A stretch of 58,974 bases of DNA from Candidatus Omnitrophota bacterium (GTDB taxonomy: Bacteria > Omnitrophota > Gorgyraeia > Pluralincolimonadales > CAZUZR01): contig JBDRDF010000006.1 of assembly GCA_043821025.1 (NCBI GenBank), positions 1 to 58,974 on the forward strand, read 5' to 3'. Positions 1 to 52,909 of this stretch are shown in pieces (the stretch's first letter is position 1; each line of letters opens with the position of its first letter). The notes below the pieces were generated by a model. That model was not told the origin of the DNA, ran no database searches, and saw only the letters and a program-made list of their open reading frames with translations. A program made the translations under genes and the position numbers.

Positions 1-16
1 GATTTATGTCTCTCAT
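1..16 (-). CDS. 5' end of an unidentified gene running off the left edge (MRDIN...)
   Basis: ATG at 16..14 is preceded by AAGGAGG (30..24) with a 7-nt spacer. Only 5 codons lie inside the window. Confidence 0.35.
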
Positions 17-79
17 GGTATATCCTCCTTTAGGGCTTCTTGCCCCGGTTATCACGCAATAACCGTGAGGATATACCAT
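15..79 (-). promoter_or_regulatory. SD/start-codon sequestering stem enclosing two small hairpins, in the 5' leader of the left-edge gene
   Basis: A perfect 13-bp pairing joins 15..27 (atggtatatcctc) to 67..79 (gaggatataccat). On the minus-strand RNA it covers GAGG of the SD, the spacer and AU of the AUG. Inner hairpins are cggttat/ataaccg (46..65) and gggc/gccc (33..45). Confidence 0.4.
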
Positions 80-148
80 TTTTATTTACATTTCAAAGAA
101 CTATTGAGATGGAAAGCGTCCATAATATTTTACACTATCTAATAGGAA

Positions 149-267
149 TGAAATTTAAGTCTTGCTTGGCCTTCCTTTATTACTCGATTAAGGTTAATAG
201 CACCTGCGTCATAAACCGGCTCTGCGCAAGACATTAAATTTCAAAGATAATAAATATTTCTGTAATT
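149..267 (+). repeat. Intergenic repeat module 2, copy 1 (flanks core copy A)
   Basis: Collinear similarity to 51536..51657. Inverted 11-mers tgaaatttaag (149..159) and ttaaatttca (234..243) bound it. Indels between copies are not multiples of 3. Confidence 0.6.
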
Positions 268-399
268 CTGAATATCGCATCCGCACGTAGAAGATTCGAG
301 CGGGCAAGGTTGCCCACACTTAACCTTAAGGCAGAGCGAGAAGATTCTCCGAGCGAGTGAGACACGCTGGGTCGAACGAGCGGTGCGGGAGATATTCAG
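268..399 (+). repeat. Structured core repeat, copy A
   Basis: Closing stem is ctgaatatc (268..276) / gatattcag (391..399). The core runs from ccgcacg to cggtgcgg and is near-identical to copies B and C. GAGCG(A/G)G-type boxes (the fourth reads GAGCGGT) start at 298, 334, 351 and 378. Confidence 0.8.
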
Positions 400-438
400 A
401 ATAGAAGAAGTATCTATTGATTTGATAAACAGGGAATG

Positions 439-1635
439 TTATTTATCTGTCTTCAGCCAAAATAGGTCTTCGTCAGATATATCTTTATCTCTGCCTATCT
501 TCATAGGGTCGTAGCCAAATTTACCCAGTAAATACCAGGCAGAGGAAGCGAGGGAAAGATATCGCTCGACGCCCTCCCATAACTGACCACGTCCATAATG
601 AGTGCCTGGATTGGTAGCATAAGGAATCCCATATAATTGAGGATCTTTTGAGCTGGGAACGAACATCTTCTCAAGTTCTCTCAAATAATATTCTGCCATA
701 AAATTTAAACCTGCACTGCGATAAGCAACTACCATTTCACCTGTCCCTTCCAACCAGATCGAATCTAAATCGAGGTCAAAACAGAACCCAGTGATATTTT
801 TATTATTAACTAAAGCGATCTTGGTCGTGCGATAAGAATCTGCTTCTTCAAGTATTTGAATGGGCATCTTTTTGAAAGCGCAATATCCCCATGAATGCAG
901 GTCAAGAGCGTATTTATAAGTAGGGTGTTCTTTCCAAGCAAGAAATGTCTTCTTTTCAGCATCCCAATATTCATGTTTAAGATATTGAAGTATCTTTTTA
1001 TGGAAAGAATCGTAGCCGCTGACAGCATTGAAGACGTCGATAGTACCCTCGGTAGATTTTAAAATCTTCTGGCCTTGTTTATCATATCCGCCCCAAAGCC
1101 CACCATCTGCCTCATCCTGCAGAGAGCGCAGCCACGTCTCAAGACTTAAAGATAACGCTTCATATTTCCGAGTATTTGTTAGATGATGGTAATTATTTAA
1201 CGCTATAAGTAACCAAGCATTATCTCCCAACCACCGATGAGGCGTTCCATCTAACGGAATGCCTTGGCGATCGCGAAATTGACCAAAGCCACCTGGAGAT
1301 TGCCTTAGTTCATCTATGTGCTGGTCGAAGAAATCAAATATTTTTTCAGCCCTATCAAAATCCCCGTAGGCGCAAAAGACAACTGCTGATAAAGCATTTT
1401 CATAAAGAGATACAAAATTGCTGCCATCTGAACTCTCTAACAATCCATTAGGCAGCTGAAGGCCCTTTACCCAATCATAAACTCTTTGGGCTTTCCGGTC
1501 AGCGACGACAATGTGCGGTGGGACGACAACTACTTCTTTCTTTCTAATTAAAGAAGCACAACCCGGTAAAGTAAAAAGTGCCAAAAAAATAATCCAAGCT
1601 AAAATAAAATATGTGCGTGTTTGTCCTTTAGCCAT
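439..1635 (-). CDS. Predicted lipoprotein of unknown function, possibly an alpha/alpha-toroid-like fold
   Basis: 398-aa ORF with an N-terminal signal sequence and lipobox-like LPGC. I recognise no confident family. Confidence 0.55.
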   Translation of the reverse strand: MAKGQTRTYFILAWIIFLALFTLPGCASLIRKKEVVVVPPHIVVADRKAQRVYDWVKGLQLPNGLLESSDGSNFVSLYENALSAVVFCAYGDFDRAEKIFDFFDQHIDELRQSPGGFGQFRDRQGIPLDGTPHRWLGDNAWLLIALNNYHHLTNTRKYEALSLSLETWLRSLQDEADGGLWGGYDKQGQKILKSTEGTIDVFNAVSGYDSFHKKILQYLKHEYWDAEKKTFLAWKEHPTYKYALDLHSWGYCAFKKMPIQILEEADSYRTTKIALVNNKNITGFCFDLDLDSIWLEGTGEMVVAYRSAGLNFMAEYYLRELEKMFVPSSKDPQLYGIPYATNPGTHYGRGQLWEGVERYLSLASSAWYLLGKFGYDPMKIGRDKDISDEDLFWLKTDK

Positions 1636-10650: not shown

Positions 10651-11085
10651 TTACTCGATAGGCGTTCCGCTAGAATTGTTTAACCTAATTACGCCCGCCT
10701 GATTCACAAAGAAAACCCTCGTTCCCGTAACGTTAGGGTCTTGAGGAGTAGCGGTACAAGTATATTGAGAGGTGCTAACCCTCGTATAGGCAAAAGTATA
10801 ACCCTGTTTTGTACCGCCGCCTAATGTGGGATCGATATAGGGTGGCGTTGCGCTACTTAATGCTCCTAAGGTTCCAGGATAATTTGGCGATGCCTGATCG
10901 ACGCTATAACTCTCACACGCAATAGCTATTGTATGTAACGCTGCTATCGCTGCAGTTTCATTGGCATTTAGACGCACACGGCGTAAATTAGGTATCGAAA
11001 TTGCGGCTAATAAAGCTATGATTCCAACGACGATCATAATCTCAATGAGCGAAAAACCTTTTTTTTCGCAAAACCTCATCATCAT
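10651..11085 (-). CDS. pilA: Type IV pilin (major-pilin-like), paralog 3
   Basis: MMMRFCEKKG/FSLIEIMIVVGIIALLAAISIPNL. It shares conserved blocks with the two pilins at 20103 and 20747. Confidence 0.85.
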   Translation of the reverse strand: MMMRFCEKKGFSLIEIMIVVGIIALLAAISIPNLRRVRLNANETAAIAALHTIAIACESYSVDQASPNYPGTLGALSSATPPYIDPTLGGGTKQGYTFAYTRVSTSQYTCTATPQDPNVTGTRVFFVNQAGVIRLNNSSGTPIE

Positions 11086-11178
11086 TTAAGTCCCTCCTTC
11101 CTCGCTAATTAGGTTTTTAAAGAACATTAGCTTAAAACGATGAATTTATAATTTCGCACCCTCGGCCTTTCTAATAAA

Positions 11179-11206
11179 AGTATATCATAAATCCTATGTT
11201 TATTAA
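11179..11206 (-). promoter_or_regulatory. Putative sigma70-type promoter of pilin paralog 3
   Basis: TTAATA (11206..11201), 16 nt, TATACT (11184..11179). It is positionally homologous to the promoters at 20630 and 21266. Confidence 0.45.
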
Positions 11207-11238
11207 AGACGTTATTAAATTAAGCAGATGGAGTTGCA

Positions 11239-20102: not shown

Positions 20103-20531
20103 TTACGAGATAGGCGAACCCGACGAATTGTTCAACTTGATTACGCCATCCTCACTCACGAAGAAGACCCTCGTACCAGTAAAGCCGGTGGTCTCAGGAG
20201 TAGCAGTGACGCTGAAGGTATTCGCGGTACCAGCGGGTGCGGTAAAAGTATAACCTTGTTTTGTTCCGGTACCTAATGTAGCATCAATATACGGAGGTGT
20301 TGCACCACTTAAGGCTGCTAAGGTGGTGGGATAAGCTATTGGTGTCTGGGCAGCACGATAACTCTCGCACGCAATGCTTATTGTGCGTAATGCTCCTATC
20401 GCAGATACCTCATTAGCATTATGTCTGGCACGCAGTAAGTTGGGTATCGCTATTGTGGCTAATAAAGCTATGATTGCAACTACTATCATAAGCTCAACGA
20501 GCGTAAAACCCTTCCTTCCGCAGAACCTCAT
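20103..20531 (-). CDS. pilA: Type IV pilin, paralog 2
   Basis: MRFCGRKG/FTLVELMIVVAIIALLA, 142 aa, ending ...SSGSPIS. Confidence 0.9.
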   Translation of the reverse strand: MRFCGRKGFTLVELMIVVAIIALLATIAIPNLLRARHNANEVSAIGALRTISIACESYRAAQTPIAYPTTLAALSGATPPYIDATLGTGTKQGYTFTAPAGTANTFSVTATPETTGFTGTRVFFVSEDGVIKLNNSSGSPIS

Positions 20532-20629
20532 CTTATTTCTCCCTTTCTTCCTTCCCTAATTGGGTTTTTAAAGAGCATTGGCTTAAGGCAATAAACCTAT
20601 AATTTCACGCCTTCGGCCTTCTAATAAAA

Positions 20630-20657
20630 AGTATAGCATAAAACCTATCTTTGTTAA
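20630..20657 (-). promoter_or_regulatory. Putative sigma70-type promoter of pilin paralog 2
   Basis: TTAACA (20657..20652), 16 nt with TGc, TATACT (20635..20630). Confidence 0.5.
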
Positions 20658-20667
20658 AGAATTATTA

Positions 20668-20746: not shown

Positions 20747-21169
20747 TTACGAGATAGGCGAACCCGCCGAATTTGTCAACTTGATTACGCCATCCTCACT
20801 CACGTAGAAGATCCTCGTACCAGTAACGCCAGTGGACTCAGGAGTAGCAGTGACGCTGAAGATATTCGCGGTACCAGCGGGTGCGGTAAAAATATAACCT
20901 TGTTTTGTTCCGGTACCTAATGTAGCATCAATATACGGAGGTGTTGAGCCACTTAAGGCTCCTAAGGTGGTGGGATAAGCCGCATTTACGGCACGATAAC
21001 TAATGCATGCACTGGCTAATGTGCGTAAAGCTCCTATCGCAGCTGTCTCATTAGCATTATGTCTGGCACGCAGTAAGTTAGGTATCGCTATTGCGGCTAA
21101 TAAAGCTATGATTGCAACTACTATCATAATCTCAACGAGCGTAAAACCCTTCTTTCCGCAGAACCTCAT
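20747..21169 (-). CDS. pilA: Type IV pilin, paralog 1
   Basis: MRFCGKKG/FTLVEIMIVVAIIALLA, 140 aa, ending ...SAGSPIS. Confidence 0.9.
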   Translation of the reverse strand: MRFCGKKGFTLVEIMIVVAIIALLAAIAIPNLLRARHNANETAAIGALRTLASACISYRAVNAAYPTTLGALSGSTPPYIDATLGTGTKQGYIFTAPAGTANIFSVTATPESTGVTGTRIFYVSEDGVIKLTNSAGSPIS

Positions 21170-21265
21170 CTTATTTCTCCCCTCCTTCCTTCCCTAATTG
21201 GGTTTTTAAAGAGCGAAGCTCTGGCGATAAACCTATAATTTCACGCCTTCGGCCTTCTGATAAAA

Positions 21266-21293
21266 AGTATAGCATAAAATTTATTTTTGTCAA
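21266..21293 (-). promoter_or_regulatory. Sigma70-type promoter of pilin paralog 1 (extended -10)
   Basis: TTGACA (21293..21288), 16 nt ending in TGc, TATACT (21271..21266). The leader to the ATG is about 95 nt. Confidence 0.6.
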
Positions 21294-33993: not shown

Positions 33994-34769
33994 TCTATTA
34001 CCATTACCTCCTCTATTGCCATCGGATTTGCTGCTGGTTCAATCAACGCGAATTGATATAGCCCGTTCGGCTCCATCTTCACATCCAAAACCGTACCGAT
34101 TAAAAAGCCCTTCGGATAAATCCCGCTTAAGCCAGATGATACAACTAAATCGTTGGCCTTCACATCTGCATCTTTAGGGATGAATTTCATAATTGAGCGG
34201 CCTCTAGCAATTCCATAGATTAAACCGCTTGCCCTAGTCCTCTGTGAAATTGCGGCAACTCTTATCTCAGGATCGGTAATCAATGAAACTCTTGTGCTTG
34301 ATATTCCTACCGCTGTGATTTTTCCGATGAGCGCACCGTTGGCAAATACCGCCGTATCTGTGCGCAATCCATCGTTCGAACCTTTATCGATGATTAAACC
34401 TTCGGTCCAATTGGAGGAATGCCTGCCTATCACCCTACAAACTATTGAACGGCTGGGCAATTTATCCTTTATAGCGAGGATCTCTTTTAGCCTTTTATTC
34501 TCTGCTAATGCTTCGTTTAAAGTGGCGAGTTTAGATTTTAGGTCTGTTACTTCGCGCTTTAGTCGTAAGTTCTCGCCAGCGATGCTCTTGAAGTGTAGAA
34601 GTTCGTAGCCGGTTTTAAAAATGGCTGAAATTATTTTGGTGGGAATTTTAATTAAGGTATATAGCCCTAAAGTTACTCTATTCGATGCGGCTTGAAACGC
34701 GATAAAAAAAATTATGATTAGGGAGATCGCAACGACAAGGAATAATGGCTTGCTTTGAATTCTTTTCAC
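33990..34769 (-). CDS. mreC: Rod shape-determining protein MreC
   Basis: N-terminal TM helix, coiled coil and beta-barrel domains. It overlaps mreB and mreD. Confidence 0.85.
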
Positions 34770-35860
34770 ATCGAATATTGAGATTCAGGGATCTTTGCAG
34801 CGGTTGTTACCGTTACTTTCTTTAGGTATCTTATCTCGCTTAAGACCTTCCCTGTGCCCAATGCCACAGCGGTTATCGGGTCGTCAGCGATATGAACCGG
34901 AAGGCCGGTCTGTTCTGAAAGGAGTTTGTCAATCCCTCTTAACAATGCGCCGCCGCCAGCTAATACTAGTCCGCGTTCTATCAAATCAGCTGATAATTCT
35001 GGGGGCGTTCGCTCAAGGGTAATCCTCACCGCTTCAACTATTGCAGCGATTGGCTCAGCGAGCGCTTCTCTGACTTCCTCTGAAGATATAGTAACTGTCT
35101 TGGGTAAACCGGCAACCAGATCTCGTCCGCGTACTTCCGTCGTCAACTCCTCTTCCAACGGATAAGCTGAGCCGATCTTTATCTTTATCTCCTCTGCGGT
35201 GCGTTCTCCGATCATCAAGTTATATGTCTTCTTCAGGTGTTGAATTATCGCGTCGTCCATCTCATCTCCGCCGATGCGTATGGATTTGGAAAATACTATA
35301 TCCGCCAATGAAATCACCGCCATTTCCGTAGTACCACCGCCTATATCAATTATCATATTACCTGCCGGCTCTTGAATCGGCAGCCCTACCCCAATAGCGG
35401 CGGCTATCGGCTCTTCAACCAGATAGACTTCTCGAGCACCCGCACGCTCTGCTGAATCTTTAACCGCTCGCTTTTCAACTTCGGTAATTCCCGACGGAAT
35501 CGCAATCACCATTCGGGGTCTAACTAAAACCTTTCTATTATGAACCTTCTTAATGAAATAACGAAGCATCGATTCAGTTATTTCAAAATCGGCGATTACG
35601 CCGTCCTTCATCGGTCTGATTGCGACGATAGAGCCAGGGGTTCGGCCGAGCATTCGCTTTGCTTCTTCGCCGACGGCCAGGACATTGTTTGTCCCTTTTT
35701 GGATTGCAACTACCGATGGCTCGCAAAGGACAATGCCCTCGCCTTTGACGTACACAAGCGTGCTTGCGGTCCCCAAATCGATGCCCATATCATTGGAAAA
35801 CATACCAGAAATATAATTAAGGCCCTTCCTTAAGATATCGAATCGCTTCTTCATAATCAT
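34766..35860 (-). CDS. mreB: Actin homolog MreB
   Basis: [13 protein letters not shown] and [14 protein letters not shown] are canonical actin-fold motifs. Confidence 0.95.
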
Positions 35861-35878: not shown

Positions 35879-35907
35879 AGCATAACAAAACCCCGCCTAA
35901 AAGTCAA
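35879..35907 (-). promoter_or_regulatory. Putative sigma70-type promoter of the mre operon
   Basis: TTGACT (35907..35902), 17 nt, TATGCT (35884..35879). Confidence 0.4.
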
Positions 35908-35928
35908 CGGTAAATAATAATTCTTACC

Positions 35929-36067
35929 GTTCCGATATCTCCCGCACCGCTCGATTTATCCCTGCGAGTCAAATCTCGCTCGGAGAACCTTCTCGCTCTG
36001 CCTTAAGGTTATATTCTGGGCAACCATGCCCGCTTGAATCTTCTACGTGCGGATGCGATATCGGAAC
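35929..36067 (-). repeat. Structured core repeat, copy C (inverted relative to A, B and D)
   Basis: The reverse complement aligns along the whole core of A and B. The closing stem is gttccgatatc (35929..35939) / gatatcggaac (36057..36067). Confidence 0.8.
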
Positions 36068-36111
36068 ATCCAGAATTAAATTGTCTACTTTGAAATTATA
36101 TATTTTGCATA

Positions 36112-36254
36112 GGCTTGTGTCCGCAAGGAACCTCTTTAGTACGAGCGGGCAGGGTTTCCGCCCGCTATCTTATTCCAGCGGAAGAGCGAGGACTAAAGCG
36201 GAGCGAGAAAAGTCACGCTGGGACTTTTCGAGCGGTTCCTAAGGAACACAAGCC
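36112..36254 (+). repeat. Structured core repeat, copy D (divergent member)
   Basis: It has the same order of GAGCGGG, GAGCGAG, GAGCGAG...CGCTGGG and GAGCGG boxes. Inner helices are compensated. The closing stem is ggcttgtgt (36112..36120) / acacaagcc (36246..36254). Confidence 0.65.
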
Positions 36255-36262
36255 GAAGTAAT

Positions 36263-37543
36263 TTATACTAAAAGCGAGTGTAAATGCTTAATGAAATCTG
36301 GATAGGATTTTATGACACAATCCATGTTGTCGATGGTGGTTTCGCCCTCTGCAGCTAAGCCGGCGATTGCCATAGACATTGCGGTCCTGTGATCGCCGAA
36401 GCTCTTCGCTTTTATACCTTTCAAATTTTTTGAGCCGACAATTGTAATTTCATCGCCTTTAACCGAAAAACTTGCGCCCATCGCTTTAAGATTGGTCGCC
36501 ATAGAGTTTATCCTGTCGGTCTCCTTATACCTTAACTCATGCGCACCTCTTATTATAGTCGTTCCGTGGGCACACGCCGCTGCAACCATTGCGACCGGCA
36601 ATTCATCTATCGCGTGCGGAATTAAATCGCCTTCTATTGAAATGCCGTGCAAATCGCTACTTTCAACGTGTATATCACCTACAGGTTCCGAAGCAACTTC
36701 CTTTATATTCTTAATCTTTATCTTCGCCCCCATAATTTTTAAAATATCTATGATGCCGGACCTCGTCGGATTTATCCCAGACCTTAAAACTATGGATGAG
36801 CCCTTTGCAATCGTTGCGCCAACGATAAAAAATGCGGCGCTGGAAATATCACCTGAAATCTCTATATCCTGTGGCTTAAGTTCGACACCGCCTCTTATAG
36901 AAACCTTAAGCCCTTCGATTGAAACCTGTGCTCCGTATGCCCTTAACATCCTCTCGGTGTGATCCCTTGATTTCGATGGTTCTGTAATCGATGAGATTCC
37001 ATCGGCGTAAAGTCCTGCCAAAAGAACAGCGGACTTTACTTGAGCGCTTGCTATTTTGGAAACATAATCTATCGCCTTTAATTTTCCGCCGTAAATTGTA
37101 ATTGGGGCGTAATTGGCGTCGTCTTTCCCTGCTATTTTTGCGCCCATAGCGCGCAAGGGTTCAACCACACGCCCCATCGGCCTTTTGGATAGCGAATTGT
37201 CTGCGGTTAAAGTCGCTTGGAAAGGTTGCCCTGCCAATATGCCCATTAAGATGCGCATCGAGGTGCCAGAATCTCCCATATATAGGTAAGTCGTTGGCTT
37301 ACTTAAACCCAAACGACCTTTGCCGCTGACGGATATCTCTCCTCGGGCCTCTTGTATATTTATCCCCAACGCCCGAAACGCAGCGATTGTAATATCTGTA
37401 TCGGCAGAATGCAAAAAGTTTCTAATCCTGCTAGTTCCATTGGCGATGGAACCTAGCATTATCGCTCTGTGGGAAATGGATTTATCGCCAGGTAAGATAA
37501 CTGAGCCGAATAATCTCTTGGCAGGTAAAATTTTGAATTCCAA
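36263..37543 (-). CDS. aroA: 3-phosphoshikimate 1-carboxyvinyltransferase (EPSP synthase)
   Basis: 426 aa with LPGDKSISHR and full-length EPSP synthase character. Confidence 0.92.
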   Translation of the reverse strand: MEFKILPAKRLFGSVILPGDKSISHRAIMLGSIANGTSRIRNFLHSADTDITIAAFRALGINIQEARGEISVSGKGRLGLSKPTTYLYMGDSGTSMRILMGILAGQPFQATLTADNSLSKRPMGRVVEPLRAMGAKIAGKDDANYAPITIYGGKLKAIDYVSKIASAQVKSAVLLAGLYADGISSITEPSKSRDHTERMLRAYGAQVSIEGLKVSIRGGVELKPQDIEISGDISSAAFFIVGATIAKGSSIVLRSGINPTRSGIIDILKIMGAKIKIKNIKEVASEPVGDIHVESSDLHGISIEGDLIPHAIDELPVAMVAAACAHGTTIIRGAHELRYKETDRINSMATNLKAMGASFSVKGDEITIVGSKNLKGIKAKSFGDHRTAMSMAIAGLAAEGETTIDNMDCVIKSYPDFIKHLHSLLV

Positions 37544-49242: not shown

Positions 49243-50132
49243 AATTCTCCGATAAGTTGAACTTCTAATTGTAACATAATCCCGTGATCTTTAAAAACTT
49301 TTTTTTGAATTTCATCTATAAGGCGTAAAACATCCGATGCGCTTGCTTGCCCTAGATTGAGTATAAAATTCGCATGTTTTGTAGAGACGCGAGCATCGCC
49401 GATCGAACGCCCTTTAAAGCCAGAAAGTTCAATTAACTTTCCGCTTGAGATATCTTCGGACGGATTCTTGAATATACATCCGACGCTAGGGTAACTTAAA
49501 TCTTGAACTCGCCTTTTCCTATTCAAATTACTTTTAAGCTCGGCACGAATTACATCTTTATCCTTATTTACCAATTTAAATTTCGCACTTATTAAAATAA
49601 ATTCGCTTAAGTCGGAATTCCTATATGAAAACTTTGTCTGACTCCTTTTTAAGGTTACTGCTTTCAAATCCTTAATCGCAACAACCTCCTCCGAAAAATC
49701 GCCTATGCCATTTGAGGGCGAACCAGCGTTCATGACCAATGCCCCACCTATAGTGCCTGGCAAACCTGCCAAAAATTCGCATCCACCTAAGCTCCGTTGT
49801 GTTGCCTCTGTAAGAAATCCCGATATCCTCGTCCCGCAACCTGCTTCAACAACTTCCCCATCGAATTTCGTATAACTAAAATTGGGGTCGTTTAAAACTA
49901 CTACAAATCCCCTAATGCCTTTATCTCCGACCAATATTTTACTGCCGCCACCTAATATAAATAAGTTTGTATGATTATCTTTAGCGTATCGCAAAATATT
50001 TAAGAGGTCTTCTACATCGCTGGGCGTAACCCAAACATCCGCTGGTCCGCCAATCCTAAACGATGTATGGTGGTTCATCGGCTCGTCGTATTTAACCACG
50101 CCTTTTATAAATTTCAATTCTCCCTTATTCAT
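49239..50132 (-). CDS. murB: UDP-N-acetylenolpyruvoylglucosamine reductase
   Basis: 297 aa with FAD-binding and MurB C-terminal blocks. Confidence 0.92.
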   Translation of the reverse strand: MNKGELKFIKGVVKYDEPMNHHTSFRIGGPADVWVTPSDVEDLLNILRYAKDNHTNLFILGGGSKILVGDKGIRGFVVVLNDPNFSYTKFDGEVVEAGCGTRISGFLTEATQRSLGGCEFLAGLPGTIGGALVMNAGSPSNGIGDFSEEVVAIKDLKAVTLKRSQTKFSYRNSDLSEFILISAKFKLVNKDKDVIRAELKSNLNRKRRVQDLSYPSVGCIFKNPSEDISSGKLIELSGFKGRSIGDARVSTKHANFILNLGQASASDVLRLIDEIQKKVFKDHGIMLQLEVQLIGEF

Positions 50133-51517
50133 TTCACCTGCCTTTTAACCGAGAGTTCCTTAGCCAGTTCCTCCGCTACAGAAGTCACATCGCCAGCGCC
50201 TAAGACCAAAACCATATCTCCAAGACGAACGTAATTTAATAAATATTCTTTAACATCTCGCCTCGATAAAAAGATGGCGCTTTTATGTCCTTTAGATTTT
50301 GTCTCCTCGTATATATCTTTTCCGGAAACGCCCTCTATGGGTTCTTCAGACGCTGCATAAATATCGGTTATAACCAGATGGTCGGCTAAGTCAAAACACC
50401 TGCCAAATCTTTCCTTTAAATACTTCGTGCGAGAGTACCTATGGGGCTGAAACAAAACGACGAGGCGTTTGGGGTTCCAATTCTTCGCTGCGAGTATCGT
50501 CGCTTTAATCTCTGCGGGATGATGCGCATAATCATCTATTATGCTTATGCCATCCTTGCAGTACTTTCTCTGAAATCTTCTTTCAGCGCCCCTGAAATCT
50601 TCCACCGTATCTTTTATCGTCTTAAAATCTAAGCCGATCTGTAAAGCGACCGCAAACGCTGCCATCGCATTTGATACATTATGGATGCCTGGGATGTTTA
50701 ACGCTGCCCTGCCTAAATTATCTCCATTATATACAACGCTAAATTCTGTATGGTCCTCATGCATCTTAATATCTTCGGGATATATATCCAGCCCCTTTGA
50801 GAGGCCGAAATATGTTATATCCTTCTCATAGGCGCGAAGCGCACGCTTTATATTATCGCAATCGCCGCAAGCAAAAAGCCTCCCCCCCCGTCTTATCTTC
50901 TCGATGAATTTCATGTACGAGGACATAATCTCGCGGATATTTCTATAATAATCGAGATGTTCCTCATCGATATTCGTAATAACGCAATAGAACGGCTCTA
51001 AATGGACGAATGAGCCGTCGCTCTCATCTGCCTCAACCACAAAATAATCTCCCCGACCTAAAACTGCATTTCCATTAATCGATGCGACTTCGCCTCCTAA
51101 TATAGCGGTAGGGTCTAACTTTGCGCGAAATAGGATATGCGATATCAATGAAGTTGTCGTTGTTTTTCCATGTGCGCCTGTAACGGCAATTCCTTTTTTG
51201 CCATTCATAAGCAACGCTAACATCTCAGCCCTGTGAAGGGTAGCTATCTTCTTATCTCGTGCCGACTTCAGTTCAGGGTTTTCTGCCGTTATAGAAGAGG
51301 AAAATACCACGATATCTGCCCCGTTTATATTTTTTTCATTATGCCCTAAAAATACCTCTCCGCCACAAGTCCTGATCTTCTCGATAAGCCGCGAAGATTT
51401 AACGTCGGAACCTGTTACCTTATGGCCCATCTTCCGCAATACCAGCGCTATTGCGCTCATCCCGATTCCGCCTATGCCGATGAAGTGGATATGTTTTTTG
51501 CTGTTTAATTTCATCAC
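50129..51517 (-). CDS. murC: UDP-N-acetylmuramate--L-alanine ligase
   Basis: 462 aa with GIGGIGMS and GAHGKTTT motifs. The start is GTG at 51517 or ATG at 51514. Confidence 0.93.
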   Translation of the reverse strand: MMKLNSKKHIHFIGIGGIGMSAIALVLRKMGHKVTGSDVKSSRLIEKIRTCGGEVFLGHNEKNINGADIVVFSSSITAENPELKSARDKKIATLHRAEMLALLMNGKKGIAVTGAHGKTTTTSLISHILFRAKLDPTAILGGEVASINGNAVLGRGDYFVVEADESDGSFVHLEPFYCVITNIDEEHLDYYRNIREIMSSYMKFIEKIRRGGRLFACGDCDNIKRALRAYEKDITYFGLSKGLDIYPEDIKMHEDHTEFSVVYNGDNLGRAALNIPGIHNVSNAMAAFAVALQIGLDFKTIKDTVEDFRGAERRFQRKYCKDGISIIDDYAHHPAEIKATILAAKNWNPKRLVVLFQPHRYSRTKYLKERFGRCFDLADHLVITDIYAASEEPIEGVSGKDIYEETKSKGHKSAIFLSRRDVKEYLLNYVRLGDMVLVLGAGDVTSVAEELAKELSVKRQVK

Positions 51518-51535
51518 TTTCCTGATGTATTACTT

Positions 51536-51657
51536 TGAAATTTAAGCCTTAGCTTGTGTCCTTATTTTATTACTCGCTTAAGTTAATATATGGCTAAAGT
51601 CATAAACCGGCTTTTGCGCCAAGACATTAAATTTCAATATAGTATATCAAAAATAAA
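51536..51657 (+). repeat. Intergenic repeat module 2, copy 2 (flanks core copy B)
   Basis: Collinear with 149..267, with inverted 11-mers at 51536..51546 and 51627..51637. Confidence 0.6.
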
Positions 51658-51798
51658 GATTTTCGACTGGAGGCCGCACGTAGAAGATTCAAGCGGGCAC
51701 GGTTGCCCACAATTTAACCTTAAGGCAGAGCGAGAAGATTCTCCGAGCGAGATTTGACTCGCTGGGTCAAATCGAGCGGTGCGGCGAAGACGAAAATC
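51658..51798 (+). repeat. Structured core repeat, copy B
   Basis: The closing stem is gattttcg (51658..51665) / cgaaaatc (51791..51798). The core is near-identical to copy A. Confidence 0.8.
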
Positions 51799-51826
51799 GG
51801 CATTTTGATAATATAGATTTAACATA

Positions 51827-52909
51827 TTAAATTTCTAATATATAATCAGCCAATCGTCTGGCCGCATCCGGTACAGAAAAACGCCTCGCGCATTCCGATA
51901 TAGCATTTAACCGTGCCTTATTGTTCTTTAATTCAAATATCTTATCCTTTAAAATTGCAGGCGTTAATTCCGACTCATCCAAAGTAATCGCCCCGCCTTC
52001 TTTCTCAATCGCTATTGCATTGTAATATTGATGACCTCCGGCGTACCTGTAAGGGATCAATATCGACGGAAGTCCCAAAGCTGCTATCTCAAAAATCGCT
52101 GTTGCACCTGCCCTCGAAATAATCAGGTCAGCCGCTCGATAAGCAACGCCTATATCATCGACGAAATTATAAACCTTTGCTTCGATACCGCAATCACGAT
52201 ATCTATCGCGTAGGATGTTATAATCGCGCGTCCCAGCAATGTGAATTACCTGTACTTGTCTCTTATCTTCATCGCTTATCAATCCCGCAAGATCGTGCAT
52301 GAGCATATTTATCCTATGAGAACCTTGACTGCCTCCCATTATCAAAATCGTAAATTTTGCCAAACTTAAACCAAACGACTTTATCGCCTTCTCTTTATCG
52401 TTCACTAAGAGTTTCTTTCTTATAGGATTTCCGACGAAGACCGCATTTTCCTTAAAGAACCCTTTTGTCTCCTTATAGCTTACCGCTACGCCCCTCGCAA
52501 AAAACGAGAGTAGTTTGTTCGCCAAACCAGGCAAATAATTTTGTTCATGAATAAAAAGGCATTTCCCAGACATCGCAGCAAATATACATATCGGGAATGA
52601 AGCATAGCCGCCGAACCCAACAACGATATCAGGATTAAACCTCATCAAAATCCAAATCGATCTAAAAGAAGCGGCAGTAAATTTTATTAAAAAGAGCAAG
52701 TACTTAATTGGATTATAAACCGTTAACTTCGCAGTTGGTATAAAGGCGTAAGGCGATCCCGATGAATTAAATATCTTCCTTTCAAGCGGATGGTTCGTCC
52801 CGACTAAAATAATATCTTTAACCGCTTCTTTTGTTTTAAGTTCCTGCGCGAGGCTAAGCCCCGGAAATATATGCCCGCCTGTCCCCCCGCATGCAATTAA
52901 TACCTTCAT
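51827..52909 (-). CDS. murG: Lipid II synthase MurG
   Basis: 360-aa GT28 protein with a GGTGGH motif. Confidence 0.93.
   Translation of the reverse strand: MKVLIACGGTGGHIFPGLSLAQELKTKEAVKDIILVGTNHPLERKIFNSSGSPYAFIPTAKLTVYNPIKYLLFLIKFTAASFRSIWILMRFNPDIVVGFGGYASFPICIFAAMSGKCLFIHEQNYLPGLANKLLSFFARGVAVSYKETKGFFKENAVFVGNPIRKKLLVNDKEKAIKSFGLSLAKFTILIMGGSQGSHRINMLMHDLAGLISDEDKRQVQVIHIAGTRDYNILRDRYRDCGIEAKVYNFVDDIGVAYRAADLIISRAGATAIFEIAALGLPSILIPYRYAGGHQYYNAIAIEKEGGAITLDESELTPAILKDKIFELKNNKARLNAISECARRFSVPDAARRLADYILEI

Follow-up and report, generated by a model that had tools for sequence, protein, structure and literature searches.

A dispersed repeat family with a conserved, pseudoknotted apex, probably a new structured RNA, in Omnitrophota-like genomes

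We analyzed a stretch of 58,974 nucleotides (nt) from a Candidatus Omnitrophota bacterium (assembly GCA_043821025.1, contig JBDRDF010000006.1; hereafter the window), in which a structured repeat is present in four copies, A to D (Table 1). The copies belong to a family of apparently new, previously undescribed structured elements of about 215 nt, in which a long basal stem (P0) carries a conserved apex made of the helices P1 to P4 and a pseudoknot. The family is probably a new structured RNA that was multiplied in Omnitrophota-like genomes and has been retained by selection, with the apex as a recognition surface and P0 as a duplex handle. A conserved, strand-specific and pseudoknotted fold that stays syntenic across deep divergence is the signature of a functional RNA and not of a MITE (miniature inverted-repeat transposable element) or a REP. 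The original prediction, made from the window alone, had read the repeat as a family of structured RNAs in which the interior is conserved and the helices covary, and the covariation among its relatives supports that proposal.

A scan of a one-genome-per-species collection with an exact pattern, built from the positions invariant in A to D, gave 27 loci, mostly from metagenome-assembled genomes (MAGs) of Candidatus Omnitrophota and from MAGs labelled 'uncultured Planctomycetia'; 13 exact-pattern matches were from one MAG, CAZUZR01, and a slightly relaxed pattern matched 111 metagenome stretches. We built a covariance model (R1) from 26 copies aligned by MAFFT. At E<1e-5 in the scanned loci, R1 recognized 115 copies, including some that do not fit the pattern; 111 of these were found besides the four of the window (loci with copies outside the window are numbered L001, L027 and so on). 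The GC content ranges from 48 to 78% across the family, and at least 17 copies were found in the examined parts of one MAG. Copies A to D scored 105-138 bits (E 1e-30 to 1e-40) with this model built from relatives, so the repeat in the window is not a chance feature, and no fifth copy was found in the 59-kb window at E<=1. Among viral contigs, the model scan gave a single weak match (19.9 bits) inside a GC-rich coding region, which was treated as chance, and a link to phages was rejected on these grounds. With the 4227 models of Rfam 15 (cmscan, gathering threshold), there were 0 matches across the whole window, and copy A and one GC-rich member gave only chance-level matches at permissive thresholds (E>1, 11-16 bits). 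Thus the Rfam scan, which the original prediction had put forward as a check, matched no known family; the Rfam and tRNA scans together found nothing, and no earlier description of the element was found in a literature search of incomplete coverage.

The helices are supported by compensatory changes. In the model-free alignment of the 26 copies, RNAalifold detected changes on both sides in 22 of 31 pairs. In the alignment of all 115 copies, 92.9% of the cells were standard pairs (32-52% when the 3' partners were slid by 1-3 columns), 25 of the 31 pairs covaried with changes on both sides, and cells with double changes numbered 837, compared with 234 in shuffles. The covariation score was 0.573, against 0.07-0.12 in the slid controls and 0.138 in the shuffled controls. 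The 115-copy alignment was fitted to the model and therefore favours the structure; the model-free RNAalifold result agrees with it. The element thus shows compensatory changes beyond those of the controls, the generic mark of a conserved structured RNA, and the wider set of copies bears out the pairing that the original prediction had proposed to examine in this way. Within the window, a four-way alignment confirmed the core described earlier as common to the copies (identity of 90% between A and B, 94% between B and C, and 86% between A and C; about 60% between D and each of the others). The pairing-preserving replacements that had been noted in copy D are real and are found in P1 (GGAACC/GGTTCC), P2 (CTTTAGT/ACTAAAG) and P4 (AAAAGTC/GACTTTT).

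RNAalifold recovered a three-way junction with P1, P2, P3 and P4 from the MAFFT alignment of the 26 copies. P1, with the family consensus GCMGCAC/GUGCKGC, opens to the junction, whose two arms are P2-P3 and P4. P2 runs through an internal region into the P3 hairpin, which is variable in length and whose four pairs all covary (UA/GC/CG) across the family, and P4 has the conserved loop C(U)CGCUGGG. A tandem-G.A step (UGA...GAA) connects P1 to P0, and about 45 nucleotides of the apex are highly conserved. The four GAGCGAG-type boxes, which had been reported as direct repeats at positions 298, 334, 351 and 378 of copy A, do lie there, but they are the pairing strands of tandem-G.A helices and not obviously protein-binding iterons. 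In P2, the 5' strand is followed by box 1 and the 3' strand is preceded by box 2; P4 lies between box 3, on its 5' side, and box 4. The boxes are best read as pairing 1 with 2 and 3 with 4 (CGAGC antiparallel to GAGCG, as C-G, G.A, A.G, G-C, C-G), which extends P2 and P4, and RNAalifold placed exactly the G-C and C-G pairs that flank the G.A steps. Because the boxes are invariant, this pairing is deduced from geometry and lies beyond the reach of covariation. The window subfamily has a further G.A/A.G step in the middle of P2 (AGAAGAUUC with GAAGAUUCU), in place of which other subfamilies have Watson-Crick pairs (CAAAAUGCC/GGCAUUUUG and CUUUAGU/ACUAAAG).

Three smaller motifs that had been assigned to the core, the GGGCA-N4-TGCCC hairpin and the palindromes CCTTAAGG and GAGAA-NN-TTCTC, are present but specific to the lineage of the window; the family-wide helices are instead P3 (TGCC/GGCA in A) and P2. 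GGGC lies in the conserved strand that forms the pseudoknot. Pairing of GGGCA with TGCCC (A-C) or of GCGGGC with GCCCGC (D) would compete with P3 and the pseudoknot and is not available in many members, and the GGGCA/TGCCC hairpin may be an alternative conformer.

The pseudoknot emerged from a mutual-information scan of all column pairs, which gave the known helices and one strong extra pair, 57:182. Its partners are the C in the loop CGCUGGG and, in GAGCGGGCA, the third G; the pair is G-C in 88 copies, C-G in 16 and another combination in 1. It is flanked by an invariant C-G and by a G.U or G-C. Box 1 is followed by the conserved strand GGGCAnGGU, whose GGC pairs with GCU of the P4 loop. This pseudoknot joins the two arms and docks them side by side. 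We also considered the AGCGAG boxes as partners of the P4 loop (CUCGCU) and rejected them, since the boxes are invariant and show no covariation with the loop position that varies (U/A/G); the contact that has support is the one with the GGC after box 1.

P0 extends the apex outward. The 45 nt on each side of P1 pair at a mean of -33 kcal/mol, compared with -17 kcal/mol for mismatched partners, and the median length of the whole unit is about 215 nt, of which P0, broken up by small internal loops, accounts for about 32 bp. The size of 130-145 nt proposed originally is therefore too short, as the closing stem runs outward to about 28-35 bp. On re-reading the window, the coordinates of the four copies and their closing inverted repeats were all as originally given, but these repeats, described as copy-specific, are specific to subfamilies and recur at other loci in related genomes. 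The stem of B (GATTTTCG) is found again in L003, L010, L013, L014, L043 and L099, and in L001, L015, L018 and L061 it carries a different core; the stem of A (GTAATTCTGAATATC) recurs in L009. The sequence of P0 is free to change, and C differs from A by symmetric insertions in both P0 arms. No terminal inverted repeats common to all copies, as expected of a MITE, were found, the outer stems being unlike between subfamilies. By eye, the P0 ends of A to D and of the B-type copies, where the outer boundary of P0 is not sharp, showed no consistent direct repeat, and no U-tract or T-run was seen after P0 across the family. The earlier remark that the repeat is unlike a MITE is borne out, because the outer stems differ completely between subfamilies and the interior is conserved.

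An asymmetric internal loop (5' GCGGG-UGA/UGG ... 3' GCAGGA-CCCGC) is conserved in P0 of L004, L007, L011, L023, L030, L059, L076 and others, sometimes twice in tandem, and is absent from the four window copies. This k-turn-like loop may be a protein-binding site. By the criteria for kink-turns, the box-box helices have the tandem G.A pairs without the bulge, and GCGGG-UGA.../...GCAGGA-CCCGC in P0 of some non-window members is only k-turn-like.

Several features of the core distinguish its two strands. The core helices contain 90 G.U pairs against 40 A.C, the opposite strand would turn the G.A steps into C.U and the G.U of the pseudoknot into C.A, and the sense strand is more stable than its complement by a mean of 11 kcal/mol (98 of 101 copies). 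These strand-specific features (G.U excess, G.A steps and folding energy) indicate that selection sees the strand of copy A. We conclude that selection acts on the single-stranded form of this sense strand, for which RNA is the natural candidate and single-stranded DNA is formally possible.

A number of observations weigh against a functional RNA. The asymmetry in folding energy comes partly from the G-rich composition of the sense strand, and the z-scores of the window copies against shuffles are similar on both strands. In P0, counting symmetrically at the level of DNA gave only 110 G.U against 89 A.C, a difference that is not significant; the outer stem therefore gives no clear sign of RNA, and we rejected the asymmetry in P0 as proof of RNA. 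The box-box pairing has geometry as its basis, with no covariation from the invariant boxes, and the 16 double changes of the pseudoknot pair may stem from a single evolutionary event. Between co-directional genes, 36 copies are antisense and 19 sense, a bias that is awkward for a module acting inside operon mRNA. On neither strand did a scan for sigma-70-like promoters show an enrichment upstream of the element, and no intrinsic terminator was found at any of the four window copies; on these grounds, a dedicated sigma-70-like promoter or a terminator was rejected. The lineage uses canonical promoters (TTGACA-17-TATAAT before rplU in L009), and immediately upstream of copy C there is one match of 10/12 (CGGACA-17-TATAAT, 36123-36095 on the minus strand). 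Simple versions of an RNA function have both the antisense bias and the absence of a promoter signal against them.

The genomic behaviour of the copies bears on the choice between an RNA and a repeat that exists only as DNA. The copies are intergenic and in either orientation, with the 3' side near the neighbouring gene (median 44-87 nt) and the 5' side roomier (140-190 nt). The 150 neighbouring open reading frames (ORFs) gave 174 unrelated Pfam families, with recurrences from synteny only, and an association with a particular gene was therefore rejected. Neither these ORFs nor the neighbours in the window are enriched in transposase, HUH, reverse transcriptase, integrase or Cas genes; the earlier statement that no transposase, reverse transcriptase or cas gene is adjacent holds for the window and for the family copies. 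The position between murA and mreB is kept in four genomes. A head-to-head pair occupies this spacer in the window, L027 and L082 (the last only about 68% identical, with copies 540 nt apart), while L005 has another repeat (repeat E, described below) where the D-type copy would be. Between murG and murC, the window has copy B, and L013 has an ortholog of B together with a D-type copy. A pair lies between rng and rplU in L009 and in L079, where the copies are separated by 1.2 kb with two small ORFs, and a copy lies between murJ and uvrC in both L007 and L023. D-type orthologs or paralogs are present in L027, L009, L013 and L014. Orthologous copies are 88-96% identical (95.7% between C and its counterpart in L027, 88% for D), and the flanking genes 78-85%. 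Head-to-head pairs (minus then plus) were found in at least seven loci, and the same P0 subfamily occurs at non-orthologous loci, as with the A-type stem, which is between rng and rplU in L009 and elsewhere in the window. That whole units were multiplied within genomes is shown by their copy number and intergenic niche, by the inverted pairs and by the sharing of a P0 subfamily among non-orthologous loci.

Such multiplication would also be expected of a selfish or neutral palindromic repeat of the REP/BIME, REPIN, ERIC or MITE kind, kept as a cruciform or as single-stranded DNA, whose paired changes would result from template-switch quasipalindrome correction. The many copies in one MAG, their strictly intergenic location in both orientations, the recurrent inverted pairs (as in BIMEs) and the A-type stem at non-orthologous loci are consistent with this explanation, as are the lack of promoter and terminator signals, the small G.U versus A.C asymmetry in P0 and the symmetric insertions in both P0 arms. 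We nevertheless consider it unlikely. The apex is conserved and not the termini, with neither conserved terminal inverted repeats nor a target-site duplication seen at the unsharp boundary of P0, and very divergent genomes conserve, on a single strand, about 45 positions that are unpaired or non-Watson-Crick. Moreover, covariation is seen in the pseudoknot pair and in P1 and P2, helices with arms separated by 50-100 nt, which is poorly explained by template switching in hairpins; syntenic positions are kept across genomes only 68-86% identical; and no transposase or HUH gene is among the 150 neighbouring ORFs. The alternative of the original prediction, a DNA element inserting into palindromes or creating them, is for the outer stem a possible but weaker reading.

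Three further explanations involve RNA. A large hairpin at the ends of transcription units, in which only the stem matters and which acts as a bidirectional terminator or 3'-end protector, would agree with the typical distance of 20-60 nt between the 3' side of the element and the stop codon of a convergent gene, and with the capacity of P0, P1, P2 and P4 to form on the complementary strand also. It is improbable, since no U-tract follows the element, several copies are within conserved operons such as murG-murC, where termination is not expected, and the strand-specific conserved apex and pseudoknot would be left unexplained. A cis-regulatory leader (riboswitch or attenuator) of the downstream gene is more improbable still. 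The complex conserved fold, the possible alternative hairpin (GGGCA/TGCCC or GCGGGC/GCCCGC) competing with P3 and the pseudoknot, and the copies that lie 30-90 nt upstream of a co-directional gene (uvrC in L007 and L023, mreB in the window) fit a leader, but only 39 of 102 copies have a co-directional gene downstream, and these genes are functionally unrelated. In L009 the rplU promoter lies downstream of the element, and neither the many copies per genome nor the 32-bp basal stem is a feature of riboswitches. The riboswitch explanation is contradicted by the genomic context and largely excluded.

The third is that the apex is a catalytic RNA, for example a new class of self-cleaving ribozyme in many copies and either orientation like hammerhead and twister, to which we would give only a slim chance. 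The compact three-way junction, the loop-strand pseudoknot and the approximately 45 conserved nucleotides, a level of conservation typical of ribozymes and aptamers, would suit it, as would the many copies with unrelated neighbours and the deficit of sense copies in operons, expected of an RNA that damages its own transcript. No Rfam ribozyme model was matched even at E<=10, however, and a cleavage site cannot be deduced.

We therefore return to a new structured RNA family, retained by selection, as the probable explanation. The functional molecule would be the sense-strand RNA, made within intergenic or operon-boundary transcripts or from promoters that the scan did not recognize. Its conserved apex would provide a specific recognition surface for a cellular factor, either a protein or a nuclease, and the P0 duplex a generic double-stranded handle, for RNase III-type cutting or for the protection of transcript ends. 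The family would have spread as entire units, including P0, were duplicated into intergenic sites, in many cases as head-to-head pairs, and the copies, once placed, would have been kept there by selection. A bolder version is doubtful. In it, the apex, whether a ribozyme or the core RNA of some uncharacterized ribonucleoprotein, would represent a new class of functional RNAs with a complex fold and would have been amplified as a repeat throughout Omnitrophota-like genomes, the family being an RNA-based genetic element and not the relic of a DNA transposon. Omnitrophota are uncultured, mostly ultra-small and little known, and the element would be a new and experimentally tractable part of their biology, with up to a dozen or more copies per genome wedged in core operons (murG|murC, murA|mreB and rng|rplU). 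It unites the genomics of dispersed palindromic repeats with the evolution of complex functional RNAs (about 45 conserved positions, a tertiary pair that covaries, and helices with tandem G.A). An apex with catalytic activity or with a bound protein would define a new class of RNA; if the element is DNA, it would be unusual in conserving its interior rather than its ends. In either case, the covariance model lets annotators mask or label these regions.

The features of the window copies are summarized in Table 1. The window genes are 78-86% identical to contigs of the MAGs CAZUZR01 and CAZXJX01, which makes the source of the window a relative of both. All of these genes lie on the minus strand, so that A, B and D are antisense to them and C is sense. 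Copy A has as neighbours, by Pfam, an RNase E/G gene and a gene of unknown kind.

Table 1. Positions of the four copies in the window, of their closing inverted repeats and neighbours, and of the parts of copy A
Feature	Position	Strand	Remarks
Copy A, whole element	249..418	+	P0 arms 249-276 and 391-418; inverted repeat I5, 28 nt, 82% complementary
Copy A, covariance-model match	263-397	+	113.9 bits
Copy A, closing inverted repeat	268-276 / 391-399		CTGAATATC / GATATTCAG
Copy A, core	281..388	+	P1 281-286/383-388; P2 289-297/340-348, with central G293.A344 and A294.G343
Copy A, box 1 (GAGCGGG)	298..304	+	G298.A339, A299.G338, G300-C337 and C301-G336 prolong P2; RNAalifold pairs flank the G.A steps
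Copy A, pseudoknot, 3 bp	G303, G304, C305 with G366, C367, U368	+	Covariation
Copy A, P3 hairpin	311..333	+	TGCC 311-314 / GGCA 330-333; CCTTAAGG palindrome in loop
Copy A, box 2 (GAGCGAG)	334..340	+	Partner strand of box 1
Copy A, box 3, P4 and box 4	351..384	+	Box 3 351-357; P4 358-363/371-376; box 4 378-384; pairs G357-C377, A356.G378, G355.A379, C354-G380, G353-C381
Copy A, P4 loop ACGCTGG	364-370	+	
Copy B, whole element	51643..51815	+	Covariance-model match 51656-51793, 137.6 bits
Copy B, closing inverted repeat	51658-65 / 51791-98		GATTTTCG / CGAAAATC
Copy B, neighbours (Pfam)	murG 51827-52909; murC 50129-51517	-	B lies between them, antisense to both
Copy C, whole element	35902..36089	-	Covariance-model match 35933-36070, 125.5 bits
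Copy C, closing inverted repeat	35929-39 / 36057-67		GTTCCGATATC / GATATCGGAAC
Copy C, context	mreB 34766-35860		C lies upstream of mreB, in the same orientation as the flanking genes
Copy D, whole element	36102..36262	+	Divergent subfamily; covariance-model match 36108-36249, 105.2 bits
Copy D, closing inverted repeat	36112-20 / 36246-54		GGCTTGTGT / ACACAAGCC
Copy D, context	36263-37543		Head-to-head with C; abuts the stop codon of this EPSP_synthase-family (MurA-like) gene

A second repeat, E, of about 110 nt lies directly 5' of A and B (148-258 and 51534-51650, plus strand) and is also found in L003, L005, L056 and L062. It folds into a long hairpin, and its ends form an inverted repeat (CTTTGAAATTTAA...TTAAATTTCAAAG). 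The slot that repeat E takes is, at loci that are orthologous or analogous, that of the D-type copy: L005 has E where the window has D, and L013 has a D-type copy where the window has E. GGCTTGTGTCC is common to repeat E and the D-type stem. We rejected repeat E as a degenerate family member, since it gave no model match at E<=1 and has its own terminal inverted repeat.

Five element copies of MAG CAZUZR01 contain a GC-rich insertion of about 66 nt with two hairpins (GTCGMCGCGCGAC...GCCGCCGAGTTTGTGAGGCGGCCGGA), at about 5470-5535 in L003, 1722-1787 in L009, 1310-1375 (minus strand) in L013 and 4398-4463 in L014, and at 1590-1655 in L017. The insertion is found at two positions, after box 1 and within the P4 loop, and always after GG. 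Its outer stem covaries (GTCGAC/GTCGAC versus GTCGCC/GGCGAC), and its presence would break the pseudoknot. Either a nested mini mobile element or an optional domain could account for it. The GC-rich sequence 5' of four CAZUZR copies had suggested the end of a group II intron; no Rfam intron was matched, and the sequence is this 66-nt insertion within the element.

Widely spaced head-to-head pairs enclose unrelated small genes in L079 (8812-10022), L001 (2343-3934), L015 (195-1012), L082 (2821-3358) and L106 (128-845). From their translations alone, judged by eye, one appears to encode an ORF6N-like protein and one a protein with an HNH-like motif, and others resemble genes of small membrane proteins. 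Genes may insert preferentially into the spacer between paired copies, or the pairs may flank cassettes. In L027 (4910-5860), about 870 nt more than in the window separate the murA-like gene from the D-type copy, including a 264-aa ORF and an apparent duplicate of the final ~80 nt of the murA-like gene. In L012, from an Omnitrophota MAG, an element (300-435, plus strand) is convergent with a 6S RNA gene (480-662, minus strand; Rfam, 69.9 bits) about 45 nt away.

Elsewhere in the window, the 5' leader (14-80, minus strand) of the gene starting at 16 (minus strand, MRD...) has a stable three-way fold of -34.7 kcal/mol (z = -5.7), in which pairing of GGUAUAUCCUC with GAGGAUAUACC buries the AGGAGG ribosome-binding site and the AUG. 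It matched no Rfam family, and we regard it as a candidate for an attenuator or a riboswitch. Conserved upstream leaders of about 70-115 nt (67-95% identity) are shared by three paralogs of about 140 aa (10651-11209, 20103-20660 and 20747-21293); this triplication is unrelated to the repeat family. The plus-strand GC skew is negative in every 6-kb bin of 1-54000 (-0.07 to -0.22), and the window probably lies on one replichore with its genes co-oriented with replication.

Among known systems, ERIC/IRU and the Correia elements (NEMIS) of Neisseria are imperfect palindromes of 100-160 bp in transcribed intergenic DNA, restricted to a genus or family and with conserved ends. The element resembles them in being dispersed, multi-copy, intergenic and in either orientation, and in forming a long hairpin that is likely an RNase III-type duplex. 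Those families have no conserved multi-helix apex, pseudoknot or deep covariation, whereas the element has variable ends and an apex that is conserved in genomes ranging from 48 to 78% GC. A REP is a short, GC-rich palindrome (about 20-40 nt) that carries a conserved 5' GTAG, and in REPINs the paired arms are conserved and the loop is free; both are mobilized by RAYT (HUH) transposases. The location in intergenic 3' regions, the recurrent inverted pairs and the strand-specific sequence features are shared with REP/BIME/REPIN. The unit of about 215 nt is not, 'GTAG' follows P1 in A to C, with GTTG, GTGG or CTCT in other members, and no RAYT gene was seen among the neighbours of any copy. Conserved ends and young copies are expected of a MITE or REP, and the element shows the opposite, which is the signature of a functional RNA instead.

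With hammerhead, twister and twister-sister, the element shares a three-way junction with a tertiary loop contact, tandem G.A pairs, several copies per genome and unrelated neighbours, but it has no Rfam match in sequence or structure to the small self-cleaving ribozymes, for which a basal stem of about 32 bp is unusual. The Alu domain of signal recognition particle (SRP) RNA and the Alu short interspersed elements (SINEs) are alike in architecture only (a long rod helix, a three-way junction as cap, arms tied by a short tertiary pairing, and amplification as repeats), and the element differs from them in having no sequence similarity, no Rfam SRP match, no S domain and no sign of retrotransposition. 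Orphan Rfam motifs such as STAXI and HEARO likewise combine a fold backed by covariation and several copies per genome with no assigned function; unlike them, the element matches 0 of the 4227 models and has no linked gene class (integrase or HNH) that was found. A retron msr/msd would have an adjacent reverse transcriptase, and none is next to any copy. The element lacks the defining features of each known family that could be tested. By analogy, its closest counterparts in behaviour would be ERIC, Correia and REP/BIME, and in architecture the small ribozymes and, loosely, the SRP Alu domain.

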